Virus record (IMG/VR): IMGVR_UViG_3300049893_001743
Span: 1 to 54,153 of that record
DNA: 54,153 nucleotides
Origin: a virus
Lineage: Duplodnaviria; Caudoviricetes
Direction: 5' to 3' (one strand)
Part shown: in pieces, positions 11,842-27,308 of the stretch
Layout of the letters: each line of letters opens with the position of its first letter
Numbering within the stretch: the first letter of the stretch is position 1
Translations under genes and position numbers: made by a program
The notes under the pieces: model-generated
Databases searched by the model: none
The model's input: the letters and a program-made list of their open reading frames with translations, nothing else
Told to the model about the DNA's origin: nothing

Positions 11842-12879
11842 ATGAAATATCTATTTCCATTAAGCCCATGGAATCAGCAACGTCAGTTTGAGAAGCCGGC
11901 ATGGGTATACCCTGCTCATCTTGCCATGTATGCTACACATCTGAGAGATCGTGGCCATGAAATCCTATGGGGCCTTACGGTAGATAAGGTGGATAGAGTA
12001 ATCTATGATGATACTCAGATTAATATTCCGTTTGAGAATCTTCCTTTTCCAGATAGAACGCTTACAGACGCCAAGAATCCTCGTTGGCAAGCCTATGGTA
12101 ATTACAAGTTTCATCCTGCTACCCATTACATGTCTTCTAACCTCTGTTGGTGGGCCGGCGCTAAGGGATGCATATTCTGTGTAGATTCTAGGAAGATTAT
12201 AGGGGGTGAGAAACGTGGAGTGCGTTCAGTTGCACATGTCATGTCTGAAATAGAGAATTGTGTATCACTTGGATTCAAGGAGATGTTTGATGATGCAGGC
12301 ACAATTCCCATTAATGATTGGTTGGAGGAATTATGCGAGCAAATGATTCTAAGCGGTCTAAGCAAAAGAATTGTCCTTGGATGCAATATGAAACCAATCC
12401 GTCAGAACTTCTCACTTATGCGGGAAGCGGGTTTCAGATTCATTCTAGTAGGAGTCGAGTCAGCAAATCAAAGCACCATAGACAAAATCCAAAAGGGTCA
12501 GCACTGCGAAAAGGTTATTGAGAATATCAAGTCTATGTCTGATGCAGGCCTTGAGCCGCATGTTACCTCCATGTTTGGGTATCCATGGGAGACTCACGAG
12601 GATGAGATGAGGACGGTAAGATTGGTCCAATTTCTCCTTAGGAAGGGTTATGCTAAGACAGCCCAGGCCTCAGTTTATTCTCCTCCAAGAACTCAGCCAG
12701 ATCCTCTCTCTACCGGTCATAAGTATATCCCAATGATCTATAACGCTTATATGCATCCTGAATTCTGGCTCAATAAGCTAAAAAGTGTACGTAAATGGGA
12801 AGATGTAACTTACATGGCAAGGGGTGGAAGGTTGATACTTGAGGAGAAGATAAGAAAGCTATGCATAAGAAAAAAATAA
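11842..12879 (+). CDS. Radical SAM enzyme resembling B12-binding family, with atypical CX7CX2C motif
   Basis: CWWAGAKGCIFC, LPFPDR, RSVAHVMSEI, GVESANQ..IDKIQKG, MFGYPWET. Confidence 0.85.
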   Translation: MKYLFPLSPWNQQRQFEKPAWVYPAHLAMYATHLRDRGHEILWGLTVDKVDRVIYDDTQINIPFENLPFPDRTLTDAKNPRWQAYGNYKFHPATHYMSSNLCWWAGAKGCIFCVDSRKIIGGEKRGVRSVAHVMSEIENCVSLGFKEMFDDAGTIPINDWLEELCEQMILSGLSKRIVLGCNMKPIRQNFSLMREAGFRFILVGVESANQSTIDKIQKGQHCEKVIENIKSMSDAGLEPHVTSMFGYPWETHEDEMRTVRLVQFLLRKGYAKTAQASVYSPPRTQPDPLSTGHKYIPMIYNAYMHPEFWLNKLKSVRKWEDVTYMARGGRLILEEKIRKLCIRKK

Positions 12880-12982
12880 GCTTAAATTATCTTGGGTTTG
12901 GTAATGGAAATCAATTCAGGGGAAAGATATTTAAGGAGGATATAGTTAAGCTTCAGTTAAAAGGCCTGTGCAATGAAGCTAT

Positions 12983-13750
12983 TCAGCACTCACCGAGCTT
13001 TAAACGCTTCTTAAGAGAAAATATGAACCCACGGGCAAAGAGTGATGGAAAACGATCCGCCAGCCACTGGTGAACACTATCTGGTATTAGACGTAAGATT
13101 CCACCCACCCATTCCTGTCGGCTACCACAGGCTGTCGGGGAGATATAGTATTTTTCCTCGCAAATGTAGAACAGCTTGGACACGAGGCTTCGGGCTTGTT
13201 TTAAATTCGGAAGGTGTAAGTGTTTCCCTGATCCTGAAAAACAATCAGAATCAACTATTCCACAAAGACATCTTAGCCTGTGAAAGATCGTGGTTTCGTT
13301 TGGTACAGAGACAACTAGCACGCCATCATCAGATAGGCTCTTGGAAATCGATACGAGAACGTCTTGTGGATCAATTAAATGCTCTAGTGTCTCAAGACAA
13401 AGGCAAGCATTACAGGAGATTGGCTCAAAGCCATGATTTAAGTCTACTACCTTTGTCTCGTGGTGATAGGGGGCGCTATCAAGTCCAATATACCGAACAC
13501 TTTTCGGAAAGTACTTCCTTGCCTCGTGCGTGAAGCATCCTACATCAAGCACTGTATCTGAGTCCTTAAGATAAGGTAGGAGCATCCTAGCAGATTTCAT
13601 TACACGATCCCTGGCATATTTGTCCCTGCGATACATCTGGTGCCATGGAGTATTATCCGTGGAGGCCGATGCGGATGTACTTGGCAAACCTTTGGGTATA
13701 ATAGCCTCTAGGTGTCCTACGAGAAATAATAGGCCATAGAATATCTTCAT
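12983..13750 (-). CDS. Class I SAM-dependent methyltransferase
   Basis: VLDVGC, YIGLD, CLETLEHL..P, VVSVPN. Confidence 0.85.
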   Translation of the reverse strand: MKIFYGLLFLVGHLEAIIPKGLPSTSASASTDNTPWHQMYRRDKYARDRVMKSARMLLPYLKDSDTVLDVGCFTHEARKYFPKSVRYIGLDSAPYHHETKVVDLNHGFEPISCNACLCLETLEHLIDPQDVLVSISKSLSDDGVLVVSVPNETTIFHRLRCLCGIVDSDCFSGSGKHLHLPNLKQARSLVSKLFYICEEKYYISPTACGSRQEWVGGILRLIPDSVHQWLADRFPSLFARGFIFSLKKRLKLGEC

Positions 13751-14663
13751 CTGTCATCCTCTTGGCTTGAATCGTCTTCCTCTTCTGTGTGTTCACTTTC
13801 CAGTTCTTCAAAAAAGCCCATATCCCCTGTAAGATTTTTACACCTTGACCAACCTTGAATGTGCCAACCATTGCAAGGGCCGCAAAAAACCAGATAGTCA
13901 AATGGATTGGTATTATCCATAGGTGCTCCTTTCCAAGATTCTTATATAGCATAGTTAAGTAATTGCGACACCCCATGAACTGTACTCTAGTAGTGTTGTA
14001 ATGCTTCCTGACAGGCTTATATTTAGTATTAAACTTATGCTCACAGTAACTGGATGGAACCCATAGGACTTTAAATCCCATAAGCCACATACGCCATGAG
14101 AGGTCAGTTTCCTCTCCTAGGATAAAGAAGTCCTCATCGAATCCCCCCACCTCATAAAATATACTCTTACGGACCATACATGAAGCAGATTTGCCGGCTA
14201 GGATATACTCAGGCTTATCATACTGGCCTTCATCCACGATGTTCTGGCCTGCCCTGGACCACAGGAATCCTGTTGAGGTAATAAATGATCCTGCCTCATC
14301 GAAGCGGTTCTTATGCTCAAAATTGTGGAGCTTGCCATAAGCCATACCTGCGGTAGGTTCGGCTAGGAGCGCCTCGTGCATATTCTCTATACACTTAGGA
14401 TAGATATGCACATCATCATCGAAGAAAGCTACGTACTCTGACTTTGCCATACGGATACCCACATTACGCTTCTTAGCCGGCCCCTCGTTCATATAAATCA
14501 TAGTACATTCAGGTATACGTATGGACTTATCCGAGGTAACCACAATAACGTCTAGTTTATACTTACAGTTCTTGCGTAGGGATAGGAAAGCCTCATGGAT
14601 TAATATGCCTATGTGATGACAGAATACTACGCTAACAAGTATGTCGGACTTTGAAGATTTCAT
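13653..14663 (-). CDS. GT2 family glycosyltransferase
   Basis: KRNVG..A..EYVAFFDDD (DxD), VGGFDEDF..EETDLSWR. Confidence 0.9.
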   Translation of the reverse strand: MKSSKSDILVSVVFCHHIGILIHEAFLSLRKNCKYKLDVIVVTSDKSIRIPECTMIYMNEGPAKKRNVGIRMAKSEYVAFFDDDVHIYPKCIENMHEALLAEPTAGMAYGKLHNFEHKNRFDEAGSFITSTGFLWSRAGQNIVDEGQYDKPEYILAGKSASCMVRKSIFYEVGGFDEDFFILGEETDLSWRMWLMGFKVLWVPSSYCEHKFNTKYKPVRKHYNTTRVQFMGCRNYLTMLYKNLGKEHLWIIPIHLTIWFFAALAMVGTFKVGQGVKILQGIWAFLKNWKVNTQKRKTIQAKRMTDEDILWPIISRRTPRGYYTQRFAKYIRIGLHG

Positions 14664-14880
14664 AGAATTTATCTCTTAATTCCTCTGCATTATAGTCTAG
14701 CTTGTAGAAATCCAGGAATGCCTCAAGGGAAGTTCCTTGAATAAATACCATAGCCTCTTTAGCTTGAACAACTCTATTAGATACGTGTTTGGTCATCTTA
14801 GCCATAGAGTTCGTGATGGTAAATGAATAACTCGCCTCCATGAGAGTATGTTTTAAGATACTCTCCTGTAGCTCGGTCAT
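14632..14880 (-). CDS. Hypothetical protein
   Basis: Fills operon gap; start uncertain (MTELQES at 14880). Confidence 0.55.
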   Translation of the reverse strand: MTELQESILKHTLMEASYSFTITNSMAKMTKHVSNRVVQAKEAMVFIQGTSLEAFLDFYKLDYNAEELRDKFYEIFKVRHTC

Positions 14881-14914
14881 AAGAAATACTGACTTATGAT
14901 CTACCTTTACCAGT

Positions 14915-16153
14915 TTAAAATTCTGGGTTGAGCCAGAGGTGTTTGACTGGTGTAGGTTTCCAATCCAGCTTCTTACGGCTGTAAGCGAATTTGACCCTGA
15001 GCCTAGGGTATCCATGTTTCTCCATTAGGTTAAGTCTCATGCCGCCTTGATAACCTTCTGTTCTAAAATGATTAATTAATCCTGTAAAGAGTGGGTAGGG
15101 AAGTCCTGATACACGATGATTTCCTAGAGCATACTTAAGATAATTGGTTAGGCGATTATTGAAGGCGTGAGAGGGACGCTTTTGTAGCTCATTGAATGGT
15201 CTTGTGACCATGGATTGACGCTTGGTCCATAAGTCGTATGCCTGAACCATACATAATACCATAGCTAATTCCGAAGGAAGCACCAGTAGAGACGCAAATA
15301 TAGCCATGTGAGCAGATAGGATCCATGCCCTTTGATACACCCTCGGAAGGACCTTCCTCATAAGGTAGCTTAGAACTACTGGTACTATTATCCATATATA
15401 CTCCATTCTAATTGTAGTTATAAGTAATACTATAGGTACTATACCTATGTAGTAATTCTTCTCCCAATATCCAGGAGATACATCCTCTCTGCTATGGGAG
15501 CGTACGGTCTTAGGAAGGTATTTTAGGAATGGTATAACTTGAGGGGAACCTATGACTAGCCCTATCAGGAATGGTAGGGTCTGCGGAAAAATGGAGTAAA
15601 CCGCAGGGAGCAGATACATGGATAATGGGTAGTATCCACTGAGGAGTATCATTCCTATTCCGACAGAAGCTAGCCATAGGTTATTAGTATCTAAACCAAG
15701 TAGCGTCCATGGAAGCCAACTTAGAGTATATATAATACAAGGTTGTTGTTTCAAGTGGTATGTTTGATAGGTGAACGTAATGGCCCCAAATAACGCAATA
15801 GGAGCCTCAAGGTGAGGTAGGAAGAGGTAATACCACCCAACACTAGCCATGAGGTAATGAGCAAGACTCTGATAGACGTAGGCCGTAAAGGAAAGATCCA
15901 ATCCAAGCTTGTGGCAACACATAGACACCAGGCGGCTGAATGGATAATAAGTACTAAGGACAGGATGCCCAGGCATGTTATACCAGTAATAAGGGTCAGT
16001 TTTTTCATTGTACCTCCATGAGGGAAAGAACGTGGATAGGGATTCACTTGTAGCCAGTGTAAACGGCTTCGTATAGGCCCACCAGAAGAAGATGAGGTGG
16101 TAGGCTATTAGAATATAGATGGATAGGCTTGCCATGAGGTACATCCTTTGCAA
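14915..16153 (-). CDS. Multi-pass membrane protein, YfhO-like GT-C fold
   Basis: Many TM segments; PYYWY..PGHP....YYP, SWLPW, LLSGYYP patterns; soluble C-terminal domain. Confidence 0.65.
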   Translation of the reverse strand: MQRMYLMASLSIYILIAYHLIFFWWAYTKPFTLATSESLSTFFPSWRYNEKTDPYYWYNMPGHPVLSTYYPFSRLVSMCCHKLGLDLSFTAYVYQSLAHYLMASVGWYYLFLPHLEAPIALFGAITFTYQTYHLKQQPCIIYTLSWLPWTLLGLDTNNLWLASVGIGMILLSGYYPLSMYLLPAVYSIFPQTLPFLIGLVIGSPQVIPFLKYLPKTVRSHSREDVSPGYWEKNYYIGIVPIVLLITTIRMEYIWIIVPVVLSYLMRKVLPRVYQRAWILSAHMAIFASLLVLPSELAMVLCMVQAYDLWTKRQSMVTRPFNELQKRPSHAFNNRLTNYLKYALGNHRVSGLPYPLFTGLINHFRTEGYQGGMRLNLMEKHGYPRLRVKFAYSRKKLDWKPTPVKHLWLNPEF

Positions 16154-16947
16154 ACGCCATTATATTCTCTTCTCATATGTGAATCCCGAATAGAGCGTAA
16201 CCTATCAGAACTCCAATAATCATGGATATTGTAGCTACTAGAATATACTCCAGAAGATTCGACTCCTTTTGGGTCATTGCAACAGATCGTAATTTCACCA
16301 TTCCATCGGATGGCAGGTGCAAGCCATAAGTGGTAGCATGGATATCTATCGGCCCCAGATTTTTCATCCAATCCCCATTTGGCTGTGTCAATGTATCCTC
16401 CATAATTATGTAAATGCTTTACTTCCTTTTGGAACCCTTCCCATTTCTCAATCTCCCCTTCTGGCGTTTCTTCAATGAGGAACCGGATGAGTCCGATACG
16501 CTTAAGTAGAGATAGGGTGAAGTCATCGAAGTTGTTTTTTCTCCAACTCCATATGATCTTATCAACGTGTAGTTCAGAAAGTTCCCTGGAAAATTTATTA
16601 AGAAGAGTTCCATTAGTCGTAAGAAGGACCGTATTTCTTCTGTTCGCTTGCTTAATATACCTGATTGCGTCAAGTATTCTGGGATAGAGCAGGGGTTCTC
16701 CGAAGAGATGGAGTGAGAAGCTTCTTGGTCCGTAGTGCTTGGCTTCATCGATGATGGAGGTAAAGAGGGAGAAGTCCATGTCCTCTTTCCTATTTTCCCT
16801 TGGGCAAAATTCACATGATAGGTTGCAGTTTGCGGTGGTTTCGATAAAGAGGTGTCTTGGGAACTCATAGTCTATCCAGTTCTGTGCGAGGATTTTGTAT
16901 AACCATGATGGCAGGCTCCTTGAGAATGAGGCGTATTTAGTTAACAA
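16108..16947 (-). CDS. Radical SAM enzyme with SPASM/twitch domain
   Basis: CNLSCEFC, GEPLL, TTNG, C-terminal CYHLW..ICCND..CKGC. Confidence 0.9.
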   Translation of the reverse strand: MLTKYASFSRSLPSWLYKILAQNWIDYEFPRHLFIETTANCNLSCEFCPRENRKEDMDFSLFTSIIDEAKHYGPRSFSLHLFGEPLLYPRILDAIRYIKQANRRNTVLLTTNGTLLNKFSRELSELHVDKIIWSWRKNNFDDFTLSLLKRIGLIRFLIEETPEGEIEKWEGFQKEVKHLHNYGGYIDTAKWGLDEKSGADRYPCYHLWLAPAIRWNGEITICCNDPKGVESSGVYSSSYNIHDYWSSDRLRSIRDSHMRREYNGVCKGCTSWQAYPSIF

Positions 16948-18442
16948 GTTCTACAGCAGACTCAGGTTTGGCACTAGAGGCTATGCCAGTTTTAGTCCTT
17001 AGACCCCACGAATCACGTATCTTAGACTCTGGCGTAAGGGTCATCTTAAGGAGAGACAGTCCTGCAGAGGCATATCTCTTAAACTGCCCTGGATTCTTCA
17101 CCTCAAGGACTCTATCGAAGACGAACTTTGGGTTAAGATAAAACTTCCCATAGAACCATCTAAGATGGGACTCAAGTTCATTGCGTGTATATATCTGGTC
17201 CCATAGAGGAGGCCTGAAGTCATCATTGATACGATTTGCATAATCACGCCACGGATCACCCACAATAACGCCTTCCTGTAAGGCTCGTAGATATATCTGG
17301 GTAGCTGGAAATGGTGATAGGATGGTCATCTGCATAAAGTCAGGCTTGATGCGCTTAGATAGACGTAGCGTATCCTTGACATCATCTAGAGTCTCAGTGG
17401 GATTACCCATCATAAAGTAAGCAAGCGTCTTAATCTTGTACCTCTTACACAGATCAAATGCCTTCTCTACCTGCTCAATGGAGGTCCCCTTATTAAGCTC
17501 CCTTACGACACGTGGATTGCCTGTCTCAACACCGAAATGGATGCGCTCACAGCCAGCCTCCTTCATGTTCTTAAGAAGGGCCTCATTGACCACATTTACC
17601 CTTGTGCGTACGTCCCACTTTATCTTAATTCCCCTTCTCTTAATCTCATCACATATCTCATTAACACGCTTCATGCTCACAGAGAACGTATCATCATAGA
17701 AGAAGACTTCCTTAATGCCGTTATCTTGGCACCACTGCATCTCATCTGCGACACGGTTGGCGTTCATAGCACGAAATCCCTTACCAAGGGCCGGCCTATC
17801 ACAATAAGCGCATGAGAAAGGACATCCCCTGGAGGAGAAAGCTGTGGTAGTGGGAGTATCCTCAGATAATACAGAATAATACTTATCTATATTTGTAAGC
17901 TCTCTTGCAGGGAAGGGTAGCTCATTTAGATCCTGAATGAAGCTGACCTGCCTATAGGTACGCCTCTCAATGGATGCCGTAGTATCGATTTTCCCATTAG
18001 CGATATCCTGAGCTAATGTATCCAGTGTTATCTCTCCCTCACCGACTATGACGTAATCCGCTCCTAGCCCATTAGGATTGAAGCACTCGTTAGGATAGAT
18101 TGCTGTATGAGGTCCACCTATAACCACTGGTGCTGAAGTACGCTTCCTTAACTCCTGCATGACCAGTTTGCAGTCCACCAGGGTAAACGTCATGGCAGTC
18201 AGACCTATGAGGTCTGGCTTTAAATCTGCCGCTATCTGAGCTACCTCAGGATGGTTCCACCCCTCTGCTTGGCAATCCAGTACATGCATATCGTATCCCT
18301 TATTCTTAAGGTAAGAGGCGATATAGAGTAGTCCAAGCGGAGGATACACGCCCTGCTGATCCTTAATAATTACAGGGTCATTTCCGACTAGTTCATATGT
18401 ATTAGGTACGTTTATTAGTACTATACGCATTAGTGTCTCCAA
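16937..18442 (-). CDS. Cobalamin-binding radical SAM enzyme (class B methyltransferase-like)
   Basis: PPLGLLYIAS, VIGGPH, GEGE B12-binding domain; SRGCPFSCAYC; GVETG. Confidence 0.92.
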   Translation of the reverse strand: METLMRIVLINVPNTYELVGNDPVIIKDQQGVYPPLGLLYIASYLKNKGYDMHVLDCQAEGWNHPEVAQIAADLKPDLIGLTAMTFTLVDCKLVMQELRKRTSAPVVIGGPHTAIYPNECFNPNGLGADYVIVGEGEITLDTLAQDIANGKIDTTASIERRTYRQVSFIQDLNELPFPARELTNIDKYYSVLSEDTPTTTAFSSRGCPFSCAYCDRPALGKGFRAMNANRVADEMQWCQDNGIKEVFFYDDTFSVSMKRVNEICDEIKRRGIKIKWDVRTRVNVVNEALLKNMKEAGCERIHFGVETGNPRVVRELNKGTSIEQVEKAFDLCKRYKIKTLAYFMMGNPTETLDDVKDTLRLSKRIKPDFMQMTILSPFPATQIYLRALQEGVIVGDPWRDYANRINDDFRPPLWDQIYTRNELESHLRWFYGKFYLNPKFVFDRVLEVKNPGQFKRYASAGLSLLKMTLTPESKIRDSWGLRTKTGIASSAKPESAVELVN

Positions 18443-18490
18443 GCGTTAATAACGATAGTGGATACCACCTTAAGTAGTTTCTTATAAACT

Positions 18491-19066
18491 CTACTCACGA
18501 TAATACCTAGTAAGCATACAAAAAGTATTAAGCACATTATCTGGACGACTGTAAAGAAGCTTGCAGAACAGGTTAGGAGCATTATTACCTCCAACGATAT
18601 CGAATGGGTGGATGTAGAATATAGGTCTATTGGGTATGCTTTGCTTGATCCAAGAGTGCTTTAGGACACTTACGTGATTCTTCTTATTAGAATATATATC
18701 ATCAGTCTTATAGTGAAACCATGGAGAACGGTAATGAGATACGTCTCCAAGATAGTTTAGAGATACTAATTTATCTAGTTCAGATAGTCTTTTATCACTA
18801 TACTTAGTATGAAAGTGTCCATGAGATCCTATGGCGTGGCCTGCATCTGCTATTGTCTCAACTAGATTTGATGTGTGTTCCAAGACCTCTGTTGAGATGA
18901 AGAAAAGCGCTCTAATGCCCCTATCTCTAAATAGATCCAATATCACAGGTATCCCATACTTAATACCATCAAAAGTATTGATTCTTCCTCCCCAATCCTT
19001 CTCTACATCTACCGTCCACGTAAAAATGACCGAATCCTCCGTGTCCTGAGTGCCAATCCTACCCAC
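18491..19066 (-). CDS. Polysaccharide deacetylase (NodB-like)
   Basis: TVDVE.DW, ALFF, IGSHGHFH, YRSP, YIHPFD. Confidence 0.85.
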   Translation of the reverse strand: MGRIGTQDTEDSVIFTWTVDVEKDWGGRINTFDGIKYGIPVILDLFRDRGIRALFFISTEVLEHTSNLVETIADAGHAIGSHGHFHTKYSDKRLSELDKLVSLNYLGDVSHYRSPWFHYKTDDIYSNKKNHVSVLKHSWIKQSIPNRPIFYIHPFDIVGGNNAPNLFCKLLYSRPDNVLNTFCMLTRYYRE

Positions 19067-20225: not shown

Positions 20226-20419
20226 AGGATTGTAAGACAGAATATAGAAGTAAACGCTGATACGAATTTGTCAAACAGGTATAGCTTCCAAACAGCAGAG
20301 AACATGGTTTTAGGATTGACGCCGGCTTCTTCCAGCTTATTGATTAGTTCCACAGAATCCTCAATAAGAGGACGTAATGTATACTCACAGAACGCACCAA
20401 GCGGTTTAGGATCCAACAA
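20186..20419 (-). CDS. Small membrane protein
   Basis: C-terminal hydrophobic helix. Confidence 0.55.
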   Translation of the reverse strand: MLDPKPLGAFCEYTLRPLIEDSVELINKLEEAGVNPKTMFSAVWKLYLFDKFVSAFTSIFCLTILCLTVLSCLRYAH

Positions 20420-20753
20420 CAGCTATGACCTCCGATTCACGGACAAATAGGATTGTCTTCCCATTCATCTCTTCTCTCTGACCTCCAAAACGGGATACCA
20501 TGACCTGATTTCCTACATGGATGTCCATCTTAACTTTGGGGCCTACTGAGATGACTTCTCCAGTACCAGGATACTTCTTGACTGCATCCTCAGCTATGTC
20601 AGGAGCTACAAGCTTACCTGACTTAAGAGCCTCAATAGCTTCTCTGGTAAAGCCAGTATAACGTCCCGCCTCCATCCTAGGATCATCTTCTATGATAATA
20701 ACGATATCATTCAAAGCCTTCAAATTGAACTTCTGTGATTTCTCCTTTTTCAT
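20406..20753 (-). CDS. groES: GroES/Cpn10 co-chaperonin
   Basis: LNDIVII..GEVISVGP..VGNQV...FGG...GK.ILFVRESEVIAVV. Confidence 0.88.
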   Translation of the reverse strand: MKKEKSQKFNLKALNDIVIIIEDDPRMEAGRYTGFTREAIEALKSGKLVAPDIAEDAVKKYPGTGEVISVGPKVKMDIHVGNQVMVSRFGGQREEMNGKTILFVRESEVIAVVGS

Positions 20754-20859
20754 CTACCCTCCATTGCCCTCCGCACCAGTGGCACACATGCATATCGCTT
20801 GAACTGACTTTCTCTAACTCATTATTATCTTTCGGGCAAAAAACACCCGATTTAGTCAT
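20707..20859 (-). CDS. Small Zn-ribbon protein
   Basis: Start MTKSGVFCPKD overlapping upstream stop (ATGA); CHWC. Confidence 0.55.
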   Translation of the reverse strand: MTKSGVFCPKDNNELEKVSSSDMHVCHWCGGQWRVDEKGEITEVQFEGFE

Positions 20860-21815
20860 ATCATTCTCAAATCTTTTATCTTGAGATAAGTCCATATAAA
20901 TCCCTGATAGATATATCCAATTAGGGTTGGTTTGATCCAACGGCTGTAGTATCTTCGGAAGTTTGTCCATCGATGTTTAGTACGAATCCTCTCTTTATAC
21001 ACTCCAGCCTTAGAAGGTCTATGATAGAGTCTGCAGGCATTCTTATAGATGAGCGTGCCGACTTTTGAAAGTTTAAGCGCAAGATCGACTTCACACCATT
21101 CTGATGTGCGTGTATAACCACTGTCGAAACCTCCAGCATTTATAGCCTCCTTTTTTCTGACAGACATATTGCACGCTTCAAGGTAAGCAACTGGTCCATC
21201 GTAATCGCAATCAGGGTCATTAGAAGCAGTAGACACAGCCCCACAAGGGCTAATACGCCCAGGAAGATACTTAAGATTGCCAAGAAAGATAGTATCGTAC
21301 AGTCCTTTAAGAAATTTAAACTTGAACAAATCACGGTTATTACGATATTCATCTGTTATGACAGTAGGACCGGATACGCCAACTACTCCCTTATCTTTGA
21401 ATGACTTAAATACGTTTTCAGCCCAAGTTGGTTCGCAATAAACGTCATCGTCAATAAACGAGACAATATCCGATGTTGCATTCTCAAGCAGTGCTTGTCT
21501 ACATTTGGACAAGTCGCCAAGTTCTTCATTGATGATAACTTCGAAGTTTTTGAACGTTTGTTTGGAGAGACTCTTGAGCGTTTCATTTAAGCTCTCTGGC
21601 CTCCCAACAGTACAGATGGCAACTGTAATATCCGTCTTAGTCCTAGGTGGACAATCATGATGCCGTATGTAACCACTGTCGCAAAACACATTATCGGGTG
21701 GACGAACCACGCTATATCCCTGACCTTCAAATAACCTCGTATACTCAGGATTAACGGTTCTATAAAAGTAACCGACACGAGTATGAACCAGATCAGTTTG
21801 CATATGTCCTCCCAT
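20856..21815 (-). CDS. GT2 family glycosyltransferase (true start probably downstream of 21815)
   Basis: ITVAICT.GR, QT..NFEVII, SFIDDD, ACNMSVR, GGFD..EVDLAL. Confidence 0.88.
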   Translation of the reverse strand: MGGHMQTDLVHTRVGYFYRTVNPEYTRLFEGQGYSVVRPPDNVFCDSGYIRHHDCPPRTKTDITVAICTVGRPESLNETLKSLSKQTFKNFEVIINEELGDLSKCRQALLENATSDIVSFIDDDVYCEPTWAENVFKSFKDKGVVGVSGPTVITDEYRNNRDLFKFKFLKGLYDTIFLGNLKYLPGRISPCGAVSTASNDPDCDYDGPVAYLEACNMSVRKKEAINAGGFDSGYTRTSEWCEVDLALKLSKVGTLIYKNACRLYHRPSKAGVYKERIRTKHRWTNFRRYYSRWIKPTLIGYIYQGFIWTYLKIKDLRMI

Positions 21816-22534
21816 TTACTGAAATCTACGAGGTGCCATCTTCTATTCTTATTGAAGGCGTGTTGAAGGCCGTATCGATAACGCTTGATAAAGAATGAGA
21901 ATATATTTCCACCAGTGTTATGGATTATTCTCTGTCTGACAATGGCATAAGCATCATAACCTTCAAGAACTAGATCATATGGATTATCTATATGATAGTA
22001 GTTATCCAAATCAGATTGACTTATTACCTCTTTTCTTATAAAGAAACCATTGTCACCTAAGGACGGAGTGTTGTTAGGACTGAAATACTTGATAGTATAA
22101 TCTCCACATCTCTTTAATCCACCAGGCCACTTACCTATCGGAAATCGGTCATTCTTACCTAGATATAAACTAAGAGGATCATTTCCTCCTATAAGTGAGA
22201 AATATTTTCCAAGTCTGTCCATACCCATCTTTGGATAATAATTTCCTGGGTATGAACCAGTAAGCCAGGGTAGCTCAAATAGCGGTCTAGTAACTTCTGA
22301 TAAGAAATGAAGGCCATTAAGTTCATTATCACTAGCTAGTATGCCTATGATCTTACCCTTGGCTCTCCTAATCCCAATCGCCTTAGCACTCTCAGATGTA
22401 CCTTCAGTAATAATAAGAGTCTCCATCTTGTCCTTAGGGAAATCCTGCTCCTCTATTGACCGAAGTAGTTCAGCCAATTTAGGGTCATTCTTATCCTTAG
22501 CTGTTATCACTAGGCTTAGTAGGATATTTTCCAC
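21587..22534 (-). CDS. GT2 family glycosyltransferase with C-terminal membrane helices
   Basis: LSLVITA, SIEEQD.P, AKAIG..AKG..I..LASDN, GDNGF; two hydrophobic C-terminal segments. Confidence 0.82.
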   Translation of the reverse strand: MENILLSLVITAKDKNDPKLAELLRSIEEQDFPKDKMETLIITEGTSESAKAIGIRRAKGKIIGILASDNELNGLHFLSEVTRPLFELPWLTGSYPGNYYPKMGMDRLGKYFSLIGGNDPLSLYLGKNDRFPIGKWPGGLKRCGDYTIKYFSPNNTPSLGDNGFFIRKEVISQSDLDNYYHIDNPYDLVLEGYDAYAIVRQRIIHNTGGNIFSFFIKRYRYGLQHAFNKNRRWHLVDFSKWEDICKLIWFILVSVTFIEPLILSIRGYLKVRDIAWFVHPIMCFATVVTYGIMIVHLGLRRILQLPSVLLGGQRA

Positions 22535-23297
22535 TCTTTAGATACTCCAGATTAGCTTCGGGATCACAATCAAAATACTTCTTATCACTAAAGTTACCCT
22601 CACCTACTTTGAAATGGAACGGGGCCAAGTCATCTGGACCACAGCATGGATAGTGGGTCATGTAAATAGCTCCCTTATCCTTGAGCATAGAGGTTAGATA
22701 TTTATATAGACCATTAGGATTAATGACATGCTCAATGACATCCTTAGCCATGATGAAGTCGAACATGCCATCTATTTTAGAACCTGATTCAATAATATTG
22801 ATGCTTAATCCACACCTCTTACTAATATATCTCATCCAGGCTAAGCATAGAAAATTGCTCTCTATGAAAGTAACGTTATTTCCTTTAGAGGCCATATGAA
22901 TAGAGAATCCGCCTGTTCCTCCAGCAAAATCCAGGATATCTCCCTTAACTTGGTCGCTTATATCAATGAACATATTCCTGTGCATTCCATCCATCATGCG
23001 AATAATGTTATTAAAGAAGTGAAATGGAGAGAATCTGTAGAAGTCATCTAGTTGTTTCTCATTTGATGGCCTAAAAGTCTTGAATAGGTCAGCATTAATC
23101 CTTGTGCCAACTCTGGCATAAGCTAAGGCTTCTTCACGTTCTATAGGATTCTTGGTATATCCCATAAATGAGTTATAGAACTTGATTGCCTCACTTAAAG
23201 CCCACTCATCTAAGAATATAGTTTCATAATATCGATTCTTTATGAAATCATCGAATCTATGGAACTCTCTAGCTGAATCGATTTTATATTCTTGCAA
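22497..23297 (-). CDS. Class I SAM-dependent methyltransferase
   Basis: ILDFAGGTG, VTFIE, FDFIMAKDVIEHV..P. Confidence 0.85.
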   Translation of the reverse strand: MQEYKIDSAREFHRFDDFIKNRYYETIFLDEWALSEAIKFYNSFMGYTKNPIEREEALAYARVGTRINADLFKTFRPSNEKQLDDFYRFSPFHFFNNIIRMMDGMHRNMFIDISDQVKGDILDFAGGTGGFSIHMASKGNNVTFIESNFLCLAWMRYISKRCGLSINIIESGSKIDGMFDFIMAKDVIEHVINPNGLYKYLTSMLKDKGAIYMTHYPCCGPDDLAPFHFKVGEGNFSDKKYFDCDPEANLEYLKSGKYPTKPSDNS

Positions 23298-24234
23298 TAT
23301 CAGCCTCTACCATTTCTTTGACTAGTTCCTTGAACCTTATCTTAGGTTCCCATCCTAGGACCTGTTTAGCCTTGGAATAATCACCACGAAGGTAATCTAC
23401 TTCAGATTGACGCTCCATAGTCGGATTCTGGGTATAGACATCCCAGAAATCCACCCCTCCAGCTTCACAGGCCGCTTCAAGCCATTCCTTAACAGTGTGA
23501 GTCTCATTAGTGGAAAGGATGTAGTCATCGGGTGCCGGCTGTTGGAGCATAAGCCATGCCCCATACATGAACTCTTTGGCATGACCCCAATCTCTTGAAG
23601 CGTTGAGGTTGCCAAGACAAATCTTCTTACCTGTAGCTTTGTATTCAGCAATACCTTTGGTAATTTTTCTAGTGACAAATTCCTCTCCTCTGCGTGGAGA
23701 TTCATGATTGAACATTATTCCGCATGAGATGTGCATTTTATAGGCTTCTCTATAATTAACGGCAATATAGTGAGCAAAAGCCTTTGATGCTCCGTACGGA
23801 GAGCGTGGATAGAAGCGAGTAGTTTCTTTCTGAGGAGTTTCTTGGATCTTGCCGAACATTTCAGAGGTCGAAGCTTGAAAGACTCGGCAATCCGAATGAT
23901 TATTTCTAATAGCCTCAAGTAATCTAAGTACTCCAAGCCCTGTGATATCAGAAGTTGTTGTAGGGGCTTTAAATGAATATTGGACATAGCTTTGCGCCGC
24001 AAGGTTGTAGACTTCATCTGGTTTAATGCTCCTAATTGCGTTATCGAGTGAGGATTGATCAGTAAGATCTCCTGGTATCAAGTTAAGCTTATCCTTAATA
24101 TGGTCAATGCGCCATAGATTGGTACAAGCAGAACGTCTTACCAAACCATGAACCTCATAGCCTTTTTCTAGAAGAATCTCAGCTATGTATGATCCGCCTT
24201 GTCCTGTAATTCCTGTAATAAGCGCTTTAGGCAT
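23284..24234 (-). CDS. gmd: GDP-mannose 4,6-dehydratase
   Basis: ALITGITGQ, PDEVYNLAAQS, QASTSEMFG, PRSPYGASK, FNHESPRRG..FVTRKIT, RDWGHA. Confidence 0.95.
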   Translation of the reverse strand: MPKALITGITGQGGSYIAEILLEKGYEVHGLVRRSACTNLWRIDHIKDKLNLIPGDLTDQSSLDNAIRSIKPDEVYNLAAQSYVQYSFKAPTTTSDITGLGVLRLLEAIRNNHSDCRVFQASTSEMFGKIQETPQKETTRFYPRSPYGASKAFAHYIAVNYREAYKMHISCGIMFNHESPRRGEEFVTRKITKGIAEYKATGKKICLGNLNASRDWGHAKEFMYGAWLMLQQPAPDDYILSTNETHTVKEWLEAACEAGGVDFWDVYTQNPTMERQSEVDYLRGDYSKAKQVLGWEPKIRFKELVKEMVEADIARI

Positions 24235-25015
24235 AAGTCTCCTTGAACCATTTTTCTGTCCTTGTTAATCCTAATTCCCTTCCAAATAACACCTCCATTT
24301 TCTCCGGTGCTTGGCTAAAAGGAATATCAAATGAGCGTTTTGGCTTATAAATCACTTTAGGCATCTTTCCGTATATAGTTTTACAAAGGTCATCGACTGA
24401 GATTGGATTAGAATATCCTAAGCTGACTGTTCCTATGGTCCATGAAAATAAGGCTAGTTTCTTAATGTTATGAACTACATCCTTTACGTATGTAAAGTCT
24501 CTTTTCTGTTTCCCATCTCCATAAATAATAGGTGGATATTTCTCTAGTTTAGCTTTGAGGAATAGAGGTACCACAGCATTACTCTGTGGAGGTTGATATT
24601 CTCCAAAGACATTATAGAGTCTTATATTGAGCCAATTCTTATGAAGTTTACCCATACTTTCCCCAAACTGCTTTGTTGCCCCATATAGGCTTCTTACGTC
24701 ATTCACTGAACTTGAGGAGATATTAATGACACGGGCTTTAGGGTAAGTTTTAGCTATGAGGTATGTACCGTAACAGTTGGTATCGATGAATTGTTTAGGA
24801 TAAAGCTCTCCCATTGGGACAGAGCGCTTTGCGGCAAGGTGAATAACCACGTTAATATCTTTATCGTTAGGTAACTGATAGAGGATATCATTACCTTCTT
24901 TCAAATCTATATTGATAGAGTCAGATGGAAGAAGTGCCATAAGATGTCGGCCTATGAAGCCACTACCACCAGTGACTAGGATTTTACCTGTATATATCGG
25001 GCTTTGACTGGTCAT
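24227..25015 (-). CDS. NAD-dependent nucleotide-sugar epimerase/dehydratase (extended SDR)
   Basis: VTGGSGFIG, HLAA, YGATK, RLYNVFG, GDGKQKRDFTYV. Confidence 0.9.
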   Translation of the reverse strand: MTSQSPIYTGKILVTGGSGFIGRHLMALLPSDSINIDLKEGNDILYQLPNDKDINVVIHLAAKRSVPMGELYPKQFIDTNCYGTYLIAKTYPKARVINISSSSVNDVRSLYGATKQFGESMGKLHKNWLNIRLYNVFGEYQPPQSNAVVPLFLKAKLEKYPPIIYGDGKQKRDFTYVKDVVHNIKKLALFSWTIGTVSLGYSNPISVDDLCKTIYGKMPKVIYKPKRSFDIPFSQAPEKMEVLFGRELGLTRTEKWFKETYA

Positions 25016-25307
25016 AGGCCTTAGATAAGAACGTCATAAAGGTTACATCTGTGATACACAACAGGGTATGTCTTTCTCCAGGATCGAAGCAGAATAGGGA
25101 GTATTTAGATAGTATTCTCTCATCATTTACCATAAGGACACCTTTTAGGATATAAAAGTATTCCGTAGTTTCTTTATGGAAGTGATTACCGAGAACCGAG
25201 TCCTTTTTAGCATTGTATATATTAACCTGTTCTATCTTAGAGGAGAATAGCTGAGTTATAGTACGTCTATTGTCAGAGTGGGTAAACTCAGGCTCCAGAA
25301 GTCTCAT
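24984..25307 (-). CDS. Cupin-fold sugar isomerase/epimerase (FdtA/WxcM/RmlC-like)
   Basis: HSDNR, GNHFHK...EYFY, PGERH. Confidence 0.75.
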   Translation of the reverse strand: MRLLEPEFTHSDNRRTITQLFSSKIEQVNIYNAKKDSVLGNHFHKETTEYFYILKGVLMVNDERILSKYSLFCFDPGERHTLLCITDVTFMTFLSKAYDQSKPDIYR

Positions 25308-25477
25308 TAGGCAGGCTTATTTTGATTCTGTTGGTTAAGGATCTGGCTAAGTTGCTGATTGATGATTTGGAGCTTACCTTGGAGAATCTCAAGCTGAGTT
25401 ACAATTTCACCTTTTTGGGCGAATAACTGGTTAATGTCAACTACCTGGACATTCTGAGGAATAGGCGTAGTACTCAT
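25307..25477 (-). CDS. Small Gln-rich coiled-coil protein (56 aa, not in ORF track)
   Basis: AAGGAG SD; MSTTPIPQNVQVVDINQLFAQKGEI...; overlaps both neighbours. Confidence 0.65.
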   Translation of the reverse strand: MSTTPIPQNVQVVDINQLFAQKGEIVTQLEILQGKLQIINQQLSQILNQQNQNKPA

Positions 25478-27198
25478 TTTGGCTCCTTTAGGATTTTATC
25501 TAATAGCTGTGATTCATTGACTGTCTTAATACCTTCCCTTTGAAAGAGATAATTCTCGGCATGCTTAAGTTGTATCTGAGCATCTCTGATGGAGGATGCA
25601 ACCTCATCCTTGCGTTTCTGATCAGGAGCTTGAGACATCATAGTATTAAGGTTATTGATTAGGTCATTAAGCCTCTTATGCTCTCCCATGACGATAGAGA
25701 TTGGGCGTTGGAGAGAGGCTTCTAGCTCCTTATACTCTTTCCTCCATTGCTCAGGGAAATGGCATGACTTGGCGCTTAGGCAACGTTCAAGGATAGGCAA
25801 AGCTGACCTAAGTTTGGCTAAGCCACCGTCATAATCGCCATGAGATATCATGGTCATAGCTTCCATACGTGTAGATGAGAAGATATTGTACCAAGATACG
25901 TCGTAGTCTGGATTAATTGATGCCCCTAACTTCCATGCGTCCATTGATGCTCCAGGCATGCCATAGTTCATGTAGGTAACACCAAGATTTCCTAGGGCTA
26001 CCTCAGAGTCAGGAAATTGCCAGTGGTTGGACTGGTAGAAGCGTAGTTCATTATCGTATGTAGGTAATTGCATCCAGGTCCTGACGAGGTAGCCGGCGAA
26101 TACCATAGAGTAGATTATGAGATGGTCCTTTGTGAGGAAGGCTATAAGAAGGCATATTCCTACAGATGGTATGAAGACATAGCGTTCTGTTATGAACTGC
26201 TGTATTGTGATCCAGTTAAGGAATATGAATAGGAATGAGATGAACCATAGGATGGAGAGGCGTATCTCAAGATATGGTGTGAGGAAGAATATAGCTATGA
26301 GAGATACTATGATAAGTAGGCCAGTAAAGAAGCTGGCGTCCTCTCTTTCCATATCCTTGGAATAGTGAAATCCATAGGTATGGTATAGGCCCATGCGGTT
26401 TGGAAATATGACGTGCTTGATGTAGTAATAGAATGTCTTAACCGCCACGATAATCTTACGCCAGTGGAACACCGTGGATTGGCCCATTTGCTGTTTCTTG
26501 AACTCTGAGACTCGCATACCGATAGTCTGCTTAATGATATCTAGGCACATTATGGAGGATATGATGAAGCCTAATAGGGCATACTGCCAGAAGCCATAAA
26601 ATAGGAGTATGACCCATACCATCATAGCCGTGAACATGGCGTGGATGCCTAGAAATTGCATGAGGCTAAAACCTATGAGCAGGAATAAACTATATTCTGG
26701 ATTAACACCCTTGGCCCAGAACACGAAGTTTAGGGTCGTAGTGATCCAAAACAAGCAAAGGGGATAGCCTAGTGCAGAACACCAGGCTACGGCTTGGGTG
26801 CCTATGGGATGAACGATGAAGAGAGCGGTTGTCATAAAAGCTATCTCATCTGAAGTTACCTGTCTAAGCCACGCATAAAGAGACAAAATAGCTACATTAA
26901 AGACTAGGATAGATAGGGTATGGTGCCTAGATGGTATCTTACCGAGTGGTATCTTATTGCCGGCCCCATCCTTCTTGTCTGAGGGGAAATTACCTCCTAC
27001 GATAGTGTATCGGAGCCAACGGCTTATCATACCGTATTCCTTACCTTGGAGCTTCCCGTCAAAGGAGAGGATGCCTGCTAGATCGTCAGATACAAATCCG
27101 CACTTGACCGTATAGGAGTATGTGAGCCATACTAAAAGGGTGAGTACAAGGTAATTCTGGTGGGGTGCCAGGAGCGATAAGATATCTTGTATGCTCAT
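25474..27198 (-). CDS. TMTC-like GT-C membrane glycosyltransferase with C-terminal TPR
   Basis: FVSDD after TM1, LFIVHP..TQAVAW, ERYVFIP, many TM helices, TPR-like ALGNLGVTY..A..INPDY. Confidence 0.82.
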   Translation of the reverse strand: MSIQDILSLLAPHQNYLVLTLLVWLTYSYTVKCGFVSDDLAGILSFDGKLQGKEYGMISRWLRYTIVGGNFPSDKKDGAGNKIPLGKIPSRHHTLSILVFNVAILSLYAWLRQVTSDEIAFMTTALFIVHPIGTQAVAWCSALGYPLCLFWITTTLNFVFWAKGVNPEYSLFLLIGFSLMQFLGIHAMFTAMMVWVILLFYGFWQYALLGFIISSIMCLDIIKQTIGMRVSEFKKQQMGQSTVFHWRKIIVAVKTFYYYIKHVIFPNRMGLYHTYGFHYSKDMEREDASFFTGLLIIVSLIAIFFLTPYLEIRLSILWFISFLFIFLNWITIQQFITERYVFIPSVGICLLIAFLTKDHLIIYSMVFAGYLVRTWMQLPTYDNELRFYQSNHWQFPDSEVALGNLGVTYMNYGMPGASMDAWKLGASINPDYDVSWYNIFSSTRMEAMTMISHGDYDGGLAKLRSALPILERCLSAKSCHFPEQWRKEYKELEASLQRPISIVMGEHKRLNDLINNLNTMMSQAPDQKRKDEVASSIRDAQIQLKHAENYLFQREGIKTVNESQLLDKILKEPK

Positions 27199-27206
27199 GG
27201 AAGATA

Positions 27207-27236
27207 AGAATAGGACTATGAGTTAATGGGTGTCAA
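27207..27236 (-). promoter_or_regulatory. Sigma70-type promoter for the glycan cluster
   Basis: Minus-strand TTGACA (27236-27231), 18 nt, TATTCT (27212-27207); ATG at 27198. Confidence 0.65.
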
Positions 27237-27245
27237 GGAGAAAAA

Positions 27246-27308
27246 ATGGTAGAATTATTAGCGTTTGTACTTTTAGTTATTATAGCTGATGCATTCTTAG
27301 ATTCTTAA
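27246..27308 (+). CDS. 20-aa hydrophobic peptide MVELLAFVLLVIIADAFLDS
   Basis: AAGGAG SD 5 nt upstream; stop overlaps the convergent gene's stop within TTAA. Confidence 0.45.
   Translation: MVELLAFVLLVIIADAFLDS

Follow-up and report, generated by a model that had tools for sequence, protein, structure and literature searches.

A conserved gene cluster for putative lipid-carrier glycosylation with radical SAM tailoring in a family of uncultured tailed phages

Why would a tailed phage with a genome of 54 kb devote more than a quarter of it to the synthesis and transfer of sugars? The question is raised by the IMG/VR virus record IMGVR_UViG_3300049893_001743 (Duplodnaviria; Caudoviricetes), whose entire sequence of 54,153 bases (hereafter, the window) was analyzed. 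The record comes from a metagenome, is classed as linear and has a CheckV completeness of 100%; the one sequencing run containing the whole stretch, possibly the source sample, is labelled freshwater sediment metagenome. The cluster under study (positions 11842-27236) spans 15,395 bases, which corresponds to 28.4% of the genome and agrees with the estimate of over a quarter made in an earlier sequence-only reading. It consists of a 20-gene operon on the minus strand plus one radical S-adenosylmethionine (SAM) gene that converges on it from the plus strand. Genes were assigned with the Pfam, NCBIfam and PHROGs profile libraries together with the listing of open reading frames (ORFs); every gene named in the earlier reading was recovered in the order given there, and four ORFs were added to it (a Zn-ribbon protein, a 127-aa ORF, a 56-aa ORF and a membrane-anchored 77-aa ORF; aa, amino acids). 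On balance, we lean slightly towards the view that the cluster encodes a lipid-carrier glycosylation system of the "three-component" type, which would act outside the cytoplasmic membrane and deliver a sugar tailored by radical SAM enzymes to a target on the host surface. The genes on which this view turns are the following.

25474-27198, minus strand: glycosyltransferase with a GT-C fold and C-terminal tetratricopeptide repeats (TPR), 574 aa, first gene of the operon (predicted from a structure model).
19009-19731, minus strand: family 2 glycosyltransferase (GT2), putatively of the polyprenyl-phosphate-sugar-synthase type (PpgS/AglJ/ArnC/GtrB class; NCBIfam, PHROG and PDB matches).
18491-19066, minus strand: CE4 (NodB-type) deacetylase (PF01522, 38 bits, cut-off 23.1, profile positions 13-79 of 124).
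16937-18442, minus strand: radical SAM enzyme with a B12-binding domain (PF02310, 90 bits; PF04055, 96.5 bits).
16108-16947, minus strand: radical SAM/SPASM enzyme (PF04055, 37.1 bits, cut-off 29.5; PF13186, 25.5 bits, cut-off 21.5).
14915-16153, minus strand: membrane glycosyltransferase with a GT-C fold, 412 aa (predicted from a structure model).
11842-12879, plus strand: third radical SAM enzyme, converging on the operon (PF04055, 47.9 bits).

The cluster did not differ in composition from the rest of the genome. Its GC content was 0.418 (0.433 and 0.435 in the two arms), and its tetranucleotide usage correlated with that of the left and right arms at 0.905 and 0.903, respectively, the arms correlating with each other at 0.87. 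In eight IMG/VR records related to the window by capsid, terminase or baseplate, the cluster genes were found in conserved order wherever the DNA reaches. The whole cluster, third radical SAM gene included, was syntenic in four IMG/VR relatives, directly after homologous baseplate genes and with 36-81% amino acid identity; a search with a structural protein of the baseplate side showed that all five records reaching the region downstream of the tail genes carry the cluster, one further contig ending too early to judge its presence. A metagenome scan added 15 short contigs from the close clade, in which the local gene order is unchanged, and a distant contig of 19.6 kb (L103; B12 radical SAM enzyme 49% identical) that keeps nearly all parts of the cluster. 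Three further virus records, G001 (95 kb), G002 (41 kb) and G003 (58.6 kb, complete), have a capsid gene 56-59% identical to that of the window (for G003, where the head-gene region was compared, also terminase and portal with 51 and 42% identity, respectively) and share the GT-C/TPR protein (34-42%), the PpgS-like GT2 (39-46%), the B12 radical SAM enzyme (39-44%) and the second GT-C (25%), along with the cupin, the GDP-mannose 4,6-dehydratase (Gmd), GT2s and the third radical SAM enzyme. In a large protein collection the GT-C/TPR and 412-aa families obtained 149 and 108 matches, respectively; among the matches listed, none came from a contig exceeding 54,153 bases, and contigs of 45-54 kb accounted for about a dozen. 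Uniform composition, conserved order in relatives and phage-sized contigs, taken together, indicated that the cluster is phage DNA and neither a misassembly nor a recent pick-up, and it is a hallmark of a sizeable family of uncultured tailed phages. The grounds on which the sequence-only reading would have been given up (misassembly with host DNA, near-identity to a host locus, no related phage with the genes) were thus not encountered, and the phages with co-localized cluster genes that it proposed to seek in IMG/VR exist, with the whole cluster in the four relatives and core parts in G001-G003.

Beyond these records the family appeared isolated. Megablast of the cluster and tblastn of the GT-C/TPR protein gave no match in INPHARED, where the B12 radical SAM enzyme found only three distant records (about 22% identity); a scan of the GTDB representative genomes with two peptide patterns from the GT-C/TPR alignment yielded 56 pattern matches, none of them confirmed. 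The nearest GenBank phages have a terminase 26% and a capsid gene 28-35% identical. The cultured phages nearest in capsid infect Roseobacter, Pelagibacter, Caulobacter, Planktothrix, Synechococcus and Alcaligenes; assigning a host from them was rejected, since a capsid identity of 28-35% is too distant, and so was assigning one from the nearest cellular homologues, which are scattered over many phyla. A tyrosine integrase was encoded in one of five related records (G004:C1:43298-43771, L194; PF00589, 104 bits; record of 52.8 kb, CheckV 100%), at a locus with no counterpart in the window; the window and the three other records are without one, so virulence may not be common to the whole family. 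A second freshwater-sediment run (X2) contained short contigs that match positions 12264-12347, 15243-16408 and 26714-27251 at about 92-95% identity, so a near relative of the window phage occurs in another sample.

Two observations on the relatives are added here. In L103, a 440-aa ORF beside the converging radical SAM gene (L103:15823-17145, minus strand) gave a weak match to the beta-barrel of TonB-dependent receptors (E 3e-4, below the cut-off). G003 carries the same 63-aa DNA-methyltransferase-like segment at 2633-2821 and 56325-56513, with glycan genes at both ends, which suggests a terminal repeat or else a permuted or concatemeric assembly.

Neither membrane protein obtained a match in Pfam, NCBIfam or PHROG, and both were placed by their predicted structures. 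The model of the 574-aa protein, built from a 48-sequence alignment, had a predicted local distance difference test (pLDDT) value of 92.9 and a predicted template-modelling score (pTM) of 0.88. In structural comparison with VIA-align its top 42 rows were all GT-C proteins (Z 16.5 for Pmt1-Pmt2, with a root-mean-square deviation, rmsd, of 4.5 Å over 320 residues; 16.3 for ALG12, 15.7 for STT3, 15.7 for AglB, 15.1 for Pmt4, 14.4 for PglB and 13.3 for ArnT), covering model residues of about 5-400 (5-396 for Pmt1-Pmt2). The next rows were TPR proteins (Z ≤ 8.6, residues 376-498), and the family profile matched the TPRs of the O-GlcNAc transferase OGT (E 1e-15) at positions 400-477, after the membrane domain; TPR_1 was recognized in 15 of the 48 family members. 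Against PDB sequences this profile matched TPR proteins only, and Foldseek against PDB gave no E ≤ 0.001 for the model, though its GT-C rows had a probability of 1.00. Invariant across the 48 sequences are E338-R339-Y340 and the pair D38-D39, which immediately follows the first helix, and the family-mean hydropathy showed about 10-11 membrane helices and a loop (229-288) with a short hydrophobic helix.

This arrangement recalls the TMTC proteins, in which, according to the available text of PMC7801869, a DD motif lies in the first outer loop, the DUF1736 loop lies between the seventh and eighth transmembrane helices (TM7-TM8) and ERxxY lies between TM9 and TM10. The phage protein likewise has a GT-C domain of about 10-11 helices followed by TPRs, as in the TMTC/PMT group, its invariant DD after TM1 and its ER(Y) before TM10 coincide with motifs M1 and M7 as placed in that text, and its loop with the short hydrophobic helix precedes TM8. 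Unlike TMTCs as described there, it is viral, has no evident M2 (SHKSYRP) or M4 (KETxxT) motif and gives no Pfam PMT_2 or TMTC_DUF1736 match.

For the 412-aa protein (model with pLDDT 89.3 and pTM 0.90), a VIA-align search over 48,161 representative chains, independent of Foldseek, placed 19 GT-C-type proteins on top (AftA with Z 14.8 and rmsd 4.5 Å over 386 residues, AglB 14.5, Pmt4 14.3, STT3B 14.0, PglB 13.2, ArnT 13.1), unrelated proteins following from Z 7.2. The clusters nearest to its ESM Atlas model were annotated YfhO, PTPS_related and PMT_2, the YfhO clusters reaching template-modelling scores of 0.77-0.82 by query. Comparison by hhalign of the phage membrane proteins with single PMT_2 and YfhO proteins found nothing (YfhO probability 1.8%), PF13231 was absent from all five phage records, and query A3 did not match the 476-aa protein of locus L023, whose function is unassigned. 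The search for longer homologues of the 412-aa family, which might have resembled YfhO (about 800 aa, with a C-terminal outer domain), found none, a weak indication in itself, and profile comparison detected no mutual likeness between the 574-aa and 412-aa proteins. According to the models, then, both membrane proteins have a GT-C fold, which VIA-align alone settled. The label "TMTC-like" given to the first by the sequence-only reading is borne out in architecture, and of "YfhO-like", given to the second, the GT-C fold is borne out; both labels are fair for architecture or fold, and sequence comparison places neither protein in the family named.

The enzyme that may supply a lipid-linked donor is the GT2 encoded at 19009-19731. 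Its best matches were PpgS (4e-15; 55.8 bits, cut-off 370), AglJ (1e-11) and ArnC (5.7e-6) in NCBIfam and a GtrB-like family in PHROG (1.7e-9), in keeping with the earlier designation as DPM1/GtrB-like, with every score below the curated family cut-off; the sole PDB match was ArnC (9bhc), nearly full length (E 0.008). The deacetylase encoded next matched GlcNAc (N-acetylglucosamine) deacetylases in the PDB; its catalytic motifs were read by eye, and no signal peptide was visible. The B12 radical SAM enzyme is the best conserved of the cluster (76-81% identity among close relatives), with an N-terminal B12-binding domain and a CxxxCxxC core in which C207, C211 and C214 are invariant. By these domains it belongs to class B of the radical SAM enzymes, and cobalamin binding is predicted. 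Its closest solved structure was AprD4 (6fd2, 1.6e-26), and its best NCBIfam match was HpnJ (TIGR03471; 176.2 bits, cut-off 577.6), AprD4 (NF033070) reaching 124.2 bits (cut-off 500), scores at which it is an equivalog of neither. The closest solved structure for the SPASM enzyme was BtrN (6e-7). We take AprD4 to be a diol dehydratase and BtrN a dehydrogenase, both acting on aminosugar or aminocyclitol rings of aminoglycosides, and because these are the closest structures to the operon radical SAM enzymes, a sugar with a free amine, such as a deacetylated hexosamine, would fit as substrate; the matches are at superfamily level only, and a lipid-linked substrate is what we propose for the cluster.

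The third radical SAM enzyme (65-67% identity in relatives, on the strand opposite to the operon) has a class-B-like core without a recognizable B12 domain, only a remnant of a B12-type N-terminal domain being left. Its cysteine spacing is non-canonical, CX7CX2C in the window and L006 and CX4CX2C in L005 and L008. In some relatives the B12 radical SAM enzyme (P0230, 745 aa; L008:8290-10909) contains an insertion of about 240 aa just before CxxxCxxC, which matched Intein_splicing (E 3.5e-12) and, weakly, an HNH endonuclease; the match in L008 begins only at query residue 200. The insertion looks like an intein.

Do cells possess anything similar? Outside the phage family, the nearest B12 radical SAM enzymes among 1.84 billion representative sequences were 38-45% identical, and the nearest cellular one 43-45%. 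From GTDB genomes and from metagenomes, 80 loci each were retrieved. A homologue of the PpgS-like GT2 lay within 3 kb in 23 of the 33 cellular or metagenomic loci at 36-43% radical SAM identity (14/20 where at least 1.5 kb was available on both sides), vs. 2/44 at 30-35% and 2/63 below 30%. Recurring neighbors according to Pfam were the GT2 and B12 radical SAM genes, often a nitroreductase, a small methyltransferase (187-259 aa) and, among membrane proteins, LPG_synthase_TM or GtrA and PMT_2, PMT, YfhO or TPR proteins. The organisms were labelled Nealsonbacteria, Saccharibacteria, Iainarchaeum, PVC group, Omnitrophota, FCPU426, Scalindua, Thermodesulfobacteriota and Thalassospiraceae. One locus (L111) presents the order short-chain dehydrogenase/reductase (SDR), UDP-sugar dehydrogenase, GT2, CE4 deacetylase, B12 radical SAM enzyme, LPG_synthase_TM, PMT_2 and GtrA; judged by its genes, it is an Arn-like path for a lipid-linked aminosugar with the radical SAM gene inserted between the deacetylase and a flippase-like gene. 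In another (L019), a TPR membrane protein adjoining GT2, radical SAM and methyltransferase genes aligned with the phage GT-C/TPR profile (hhalign 97.7%, E 1.3e-12, 407 columns), stretches FV(S/F)DD and HPxxTQAV included, and the small methyltransferase of that locus matched the 179-aa methyltransferase-like protein of the phage (BLASTP E 0.002). In gene content, the phage core (small methyltransferase, GT2, CE4 deacetylase, B12 radical SAM, SPASM and GT-C) mirrors an uncharacterized cellular module that is widespread in uncultured lineages. In quick maximum-likelihood searches of the B12 radical SAM enzyme (midpoint-rooted), the viral rows fell on one side of a branch with Shimodaira-Hasegawa-like approximate likelihood ratio (SH-aLRT) values of 99 (16 rows) and 87 (11 rows including G001 and G003), nested among GT2-linked cellular sequences; these trees are compatible with a single origin of the gene in the phage family.

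From these genes we infer a scheme in which substrate, order of steps, chemistry, acceptor and benefit are all proposals. The GT2 encoded at 19009-19731 would load an N-acetyl-hexosamine on polyprenyl phosphate, and the CE4 deacetylase would free the amine at the cytoplasmic face, where ArnD, NaxD and the PpgS pathway deacetylate lipid-linked sugars. The B12 and SPASM radical SAM enzymes and the small methyltransferases may then modify the lipid-linked aminosugar; C-methylation, deoxygenation and oxidation are examples of what they could do. The donor would be flipped by a host flippase or by an unrecognized phage protein, and the two GT-Cs would transfer the sugar to extracytoplasmic acceptors. 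For the 574-aa enzyme, the acceptor may be a protein, which its OGT-like TPR domain and PMT-like fold make plausible. Gmd, the SDR, the cupin and three further GT2s would supply and add a sugar derived from a GDP-6-deoxyhexose. The extracytoplasmic target is probably the host envelope. Analogy with the phage gtr cassettes and the proposals made for regions of pelagi- and cyanomyophages rich in glycosyltransferase genes favor the modification of a host surface receptor, so that an altered glycan or protein serving as receptor would bring about superinfection exclusion; alternatively, progeny might be spared adsorption to infected cells and debris. A bolder version, which we consider possible but doubtful, is that radical SAM chemistry on a polyprenyl-phosphate aminosugar yields a sugar not yet described, installed by phage GT-Cs that include a TMTC-like, TPR-guided protein O-glycosyltransferase.

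Several results weigh against a lipid-carrier system directed at the host surface. The flippase families PF04138 (GtrA_DPMS_TM) and PF03706 (LPG_synthase_TM) were found in none of five phage records, the window included. The three-component scheme is therefore incomplete on the phage, and flipping must use a host or an unrecognized protein; of the earlier claim of a self-contained pathway to a lipid-linked modified sugar, the pathway is supported and the self-containment is not. As the scores of the GT2 lie far below the cut-offs, its lipid-phosphate acceptor follows from its class and its neighbors only. None of the 48 members of the 574-aa family matched Pfam PMT_2, PMT or TMTC_DUF1736, and hhalign of this family against an alignment of seven PMT_2 proteins gave a probability of 2%; likewise, none of the 44 members of the 412-aa family matched Pfam GT-C families, YfhO (PF09586) included. 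In G003 the deacetylase and SPASM genes were not detected, a second B12-type radical SAM gene being present instead; these two genes are thus not universal. In the relatives the operon shares the strand of the tail genes and starts at or shortly after their end, and as a continuation of them it would be expressed late, an odd time for remodelling an envelope. Finally, the window has no integrase, unlike classical seroconverting prophages, and one of five relatives has one.

Other explanations account for part of these data. Were the cluster to add sugars to the phage's own capsid or tail proteins, shielding virions or aiding adhesion, its place directly downstream of the baseplate and tail genes (same strand, no conserved gap), the soluble GT2s, the nucleotide-sugar arm (Gmd, SDR, cupin) and the low-complexity stretches rich in Ser, Gly, Pro and Asn in adjoining structural-side proteins (e.g., 29349-30242) would be understandable. 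Mycobacteriophages glycosylate their virions with a few soluble glycosyltransferases, and virion glycosylation in these phages was reportedly treated by Freeman et al. in 2023 (cited in PMC12801897). Yet two GT-C genes and a polyprenyl-phosphate-type GT2 form the conserved core of the family, and flippase-like genes accompany the cellular counterparts, which lie in envelope-glycan contexts. Moreover, GT-Cs use lipid-linked donors and work at the outer face of the membrane (available text of PMC11127046), whereas tailed virions assemble in the cytoplasm. We consider this explanation unlikely, and it stays a live rival because the cluster adjoins the tail genes. A little less likely still is a modified glycolipid as end product. 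The trio of GT2, deacetylase and B12 radical SAM enzyme would then turn a membrane-lipid-linked sugar into a stable, unusual head group, comparable to the hopanoid cyclitol ether of HpnI/HpnK/HpnJ or the product of calditol synthase, and so alter the membrane properties of the host. HpnJ is the best NCBIfam match of the B12 radical SAM enzyme, and the order glycosyltransferase, deacetylase, B12 radical SAM in the cluster parallels the steps of HpnI, HpnK and HpnJ; according to the available text of PMC13459092, HpnJ acts after the glycosyltransferase and the deacetylase in hopanoid side-chain synthesis, on a lipid-linked glucosamine, and class B radical SAM enzymes often act on lipids. In contrast, the HpnJ score (176 bits vs. 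a cut-off of 577.6) is not that of an equivalog, the GT2 belongs to the PpgS/AglJ/ArnC class and is not HpnI-like, and no hopanoid genes accompany it. HpnK, besides, is an enzyme of YdjC type and not of CE4 type. Two GT-Cs needing a lipid-linked donor are conserved beside the trio, PMT_2, PMT or YfhO genes flank the cellular homologues, and these transferases imply that the lipid-linked sugar is a donor; because a ring-contracted carbocycle would be no glycosyl donor, we rank the glycolipid below transfer to the host surface.

The four GT2s and three methyltransferases exceed the needs of a one-sugar decoration, which could instead mean that four GT2s and two GT-Cs build a new capsule- or exopolysaccharide-like polymer or an oligosaccharide on infected cells. 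Hydrophobic helices in the GT2s encoded at 13653 and 21587 and NCBIfam matches to exopolysaccharide glycosyltransferases (EpsD, HpsN; all below cut-offs) agree with it, but Pfam found no initiating phosphoglycosyl transferase, Wzx/Wzy, ABC exporter or Wza-type gene among the window ORFs of at least 80 aa, and such a polymer seems improbable. That the cluster is an artefact, either misassembled host DNA or an island acquired lately from a host and playing no part in the life of the phage, is very improbable. The record is metagenome-derived, its gene kinds are typical of cellular glycan loci, and the contigs of two runs matched only as short pieces, none bridging 12.9 kb or 27.2 kb, which is uninformative on the borders. 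Against this stand the conserved order in eight related virus records, with the same post-tail place in the five reaching it and identities down to about 25-45%, the composition uniform with both arms, and the lack of a close cellular copy (B12 radical SAM enzyme 43-45%; GT-C/TPR unconfirmed in GTDB representatives with the patterns used). DNA glycosylation was rejected as a poor fit to GT-C and lipid-carrier enzymes, and maturation of a ribosomally synthesized and post-translationally modified peptide by the radical SAM enzymes because no precursor peptide was seen and the neighbors are sugar enzymes.

Lipid-carrier glycosylation directed at the host surface has parallels in aminosugar pathways of the Arn type, among them ArnC/ArnD/ArnE-F/ArnT, FlmF2/NaxD/FlmK of Francisella and PpgS/Rv3779 of mycobacteria. 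As in these, the GT2 of the cluster, with ArnC as its sole PDB match, is followed directly by a CE4-type deacetylase and then by a GT-C, and the cellular relative L111 presents the full Arn-like order with a UDP-sugar dehydrogenase and a GtrA-type gene. Unlike in these, radical SAM genes lie between the deacetylase and the transferase, ArnA/ArnB-type genes are lacking and scores are far below the cut-offs. Three-component periplasmic glycosylation (GtrA/GtrB/Gtr* of P22 and Shigella phages; CsbB/GtcA/YfhO) is described in the available text of PMC11127046, which cites its SI Fig. S12 for one Caudoviricetes genome with a pentofuranose three-component system. The cluster shares with these systems a GT2, putatively of the polyprenyl-phosphate-sugar-synthase class, GT-Cs, its location on a phage and a plausible role at the host surface. 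It differs in having about 20 genes instead of three, two GT-Cs and no recognizable flippase, in adding three radical SAM enzymes, a deacetylase, methyltransferases and a nucleotide-sugar arm, and in a genome without integrase. The phage itself belongs to a family unrelated to P22/SfX-type phages; no GenBank phage exceeds 35% identity to it in the capsid gene.

The LPS/cell-wall gene sets and "host recognition clusters" of T4-like cyano- and pelagimyophages are comparable in another respect, these lytic-type phages combining many glycosyltransferases with sugar-nucleotide enzymes and radical SAM proteins. The genomes of those phages are several times larger than 54 kb, whereas the present cluster takes up 28% of a 54-kb genome in conserved order. 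Large glycan gene sets with radical SAM cassettes lie there beside tail-fibre genes, and modification of the host surface has been put forward for them as a proposal only (available text of PMC7029224 and PMC12801897); the glycosyltransferases named in these texts are soluble (GT8, GT2, GT11, GT25), and the portions available make no mention of GT-C proteins, polyprenyl-phosphate synthases or B12 radical SAM enzymes. A literature search, with most subscription journals outside its coverage, found no described phage with GT-Cs, a polyprenyl-phosphate synthase and B12-domain and SPASM radical SAM enzymes, and no description of a cellular GT2, B12 radical SAM and GT-C module. The sequence-only reading, made without searches, knew of no described phage system of this composition, and as to composition the search agrees; the phenomenon is less unprecedented than that reading supposed, because cyano- and pelagimyophages already carry large glycan sets with radical SAM cassettes.

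The remaining genes of the operon, and the two arms that flank the cluster, are as follows.

25307-25477, minus strand: 56-aa ORF, function unassigned (homologue in L006 only, of eight relatives searched).
24984-25307, minus strand: small cupin, probable sugar isomerase/epimerase (Cupin_2, E 3e-5, below cut-off; 44-55% identity in relatives).
24227-25015, minus strand: short SDR, nucleotide-sugar epimerase/reductase (epimerase/dehydratase; PF01370, 86.9 bits).
23284-24234, minus strand: Gmd (PF16363, 400.1 bits, full length; TIGR01472, 402.3 bits, just below the equivalog cut-off of 415; absent from L005).
22497-23297, minus strand: class I SAM methyltransferase (Methyltransf_23, 36 bits; absent from the four closest relatives, present at 28-36% identity in L103 and G003).
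21587-22534, minus strand: divergent GT2 with two C-terminal hydrophobic helices by hydropathy (no Pfam match itself; the L003 orthologue matches PF00535 with 35.3 bits, and the GT2 6p61 was found at 6e-5 by profile search of the PDB).
20856-21815, minus strand: GT2 glycosyltransferase (PF00535, 47.5 bits).
20707-20970, minus strand: Zn-ribbon protein (PF13453, E 7.5e-4, below cut-off; 47-59% identity in relatives).
20406-20753, minus strand: GroES-like co-chaperonin (Cpn10, 37.5 bits).
20186-20419, minus strand: 77-aa protein with a C-terminal hydrophobic anchor (33-45% identity, in 8/8 relatives examined).
19686-20225, minus strand: small methyltransferase-like protein, 179 aa (Methyltransf_23, E 0.0019, below cut-off; cellular B12 radical SAM homologues have small methyltransferases of 187-201 aa as neighbors).
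14632-15015, minus strand: 127-aa protein, function unassigned, overlapping the 412-aa ORF by 101 nt.
13653-14663, minus strand: GT2 glycosyltransferase (PF10111, 41.5 bits; PF00535, 39.4 bits).
12983-13750, minus strand: class I SAM methyltransferase, last gene of the operon (Methyltransf_23, 40.8 bits).
1-11.8 kb, plus strand: left arm, with an endolysin-like gene, two DNA methyltransferases, a primase/helicase-like ATPase, a PD-(D/E)XK exonuclease and a Sak4-like annealing protein.
27.3-54.1 kb, minus strand: right arm, with baseplate, capsid, portal and large terminase genes.

The 20 ORFs of the operon are tightly packed, 18 of the 19 junctions overlapping or abutting and one showing a gap of 48 nt; ORF starts were taken at the first possible start codon, so that overlap lengths are upper bounds. 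As to the operon's own promoter claimed in the sequence-only reading, the TTGACA motif is present at 27236, and its role as a promoter received no support: promoter-like sites in the cluster region were fewer than in shuffles (29 vs. 44.2 ± 7.2), and the gap before the first operon gene was not kept in relatives (45 nt in L002, overlapping ORFs in L004). For both reasons an own promoter was given no weight, and co-transcription with the late genes is at least as likely. There was no RNA dataset among the sequencing runs matching the stretch.

Some details of individual loci are also recorded. The overlap between the 412-aa and 127-aa ORFs (14915-15015, minus strand; 101 nt, different frames) recurs with the same arrangement and offset in L003 and L004 and could reflect either a programmed frameshift or a pair of overlapping genes. 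The place that the SDR gene has in other records is taken in L004 by a gene for an HNH endonuclease (12279-12695; PF13392, 42 bits), probably a homing endonuclease insertion inside the operon. The DNA methyltransferases of the early arm (2564-3292 and 10576-11229, both plus strand) comprise one of N6/N4 type and one C5-like fragment of 217 aa. On the structural side, a 194-aa protein (30242-30826, minus strand) shows, on inspection by eye, an HExxH-like motif with a tail rich in Gln, Pro and Gly behind it, and its N-terminal 90 aa or so form two to three tandem paralogues in relatives (upstream regions of L002 and L004). No tRNA genes and no integrase match (PF00589) were found in the window.

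Surface modification by phages is known mainly from three-gene seroconversion cassettes and otherwise from loosely described sets of glycosyltransferases in very large marine phages. On the reading favored here, the cluster would be a case of phage-encoded modification of host glycans by a lipid-carrier system, unusual in its size, its conservation and its radical SAM tailoring. That an order of about 20 genes has been kept while the proteins diverged to 25-45% identity argues for a strong and specific benefit to the phage. If glycosylation of protein by phage GT-Cs is true, it would be the first viral GT-C protein-glycosylation system, and the operon would represent a compact, portable version of an uncharacterized module that recurs in Patescibacteria, DPANN, Omnitrophota and PVC, offering an experimental entry point to it. 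Being compact, self-delimited and suited to expression and assay, the phage operon would open to study the radical tailoring of lipid-linked sugars and what the phage gains from it, and the cluster could serve as a marker of an abundant phage family of sediments and groundwater.

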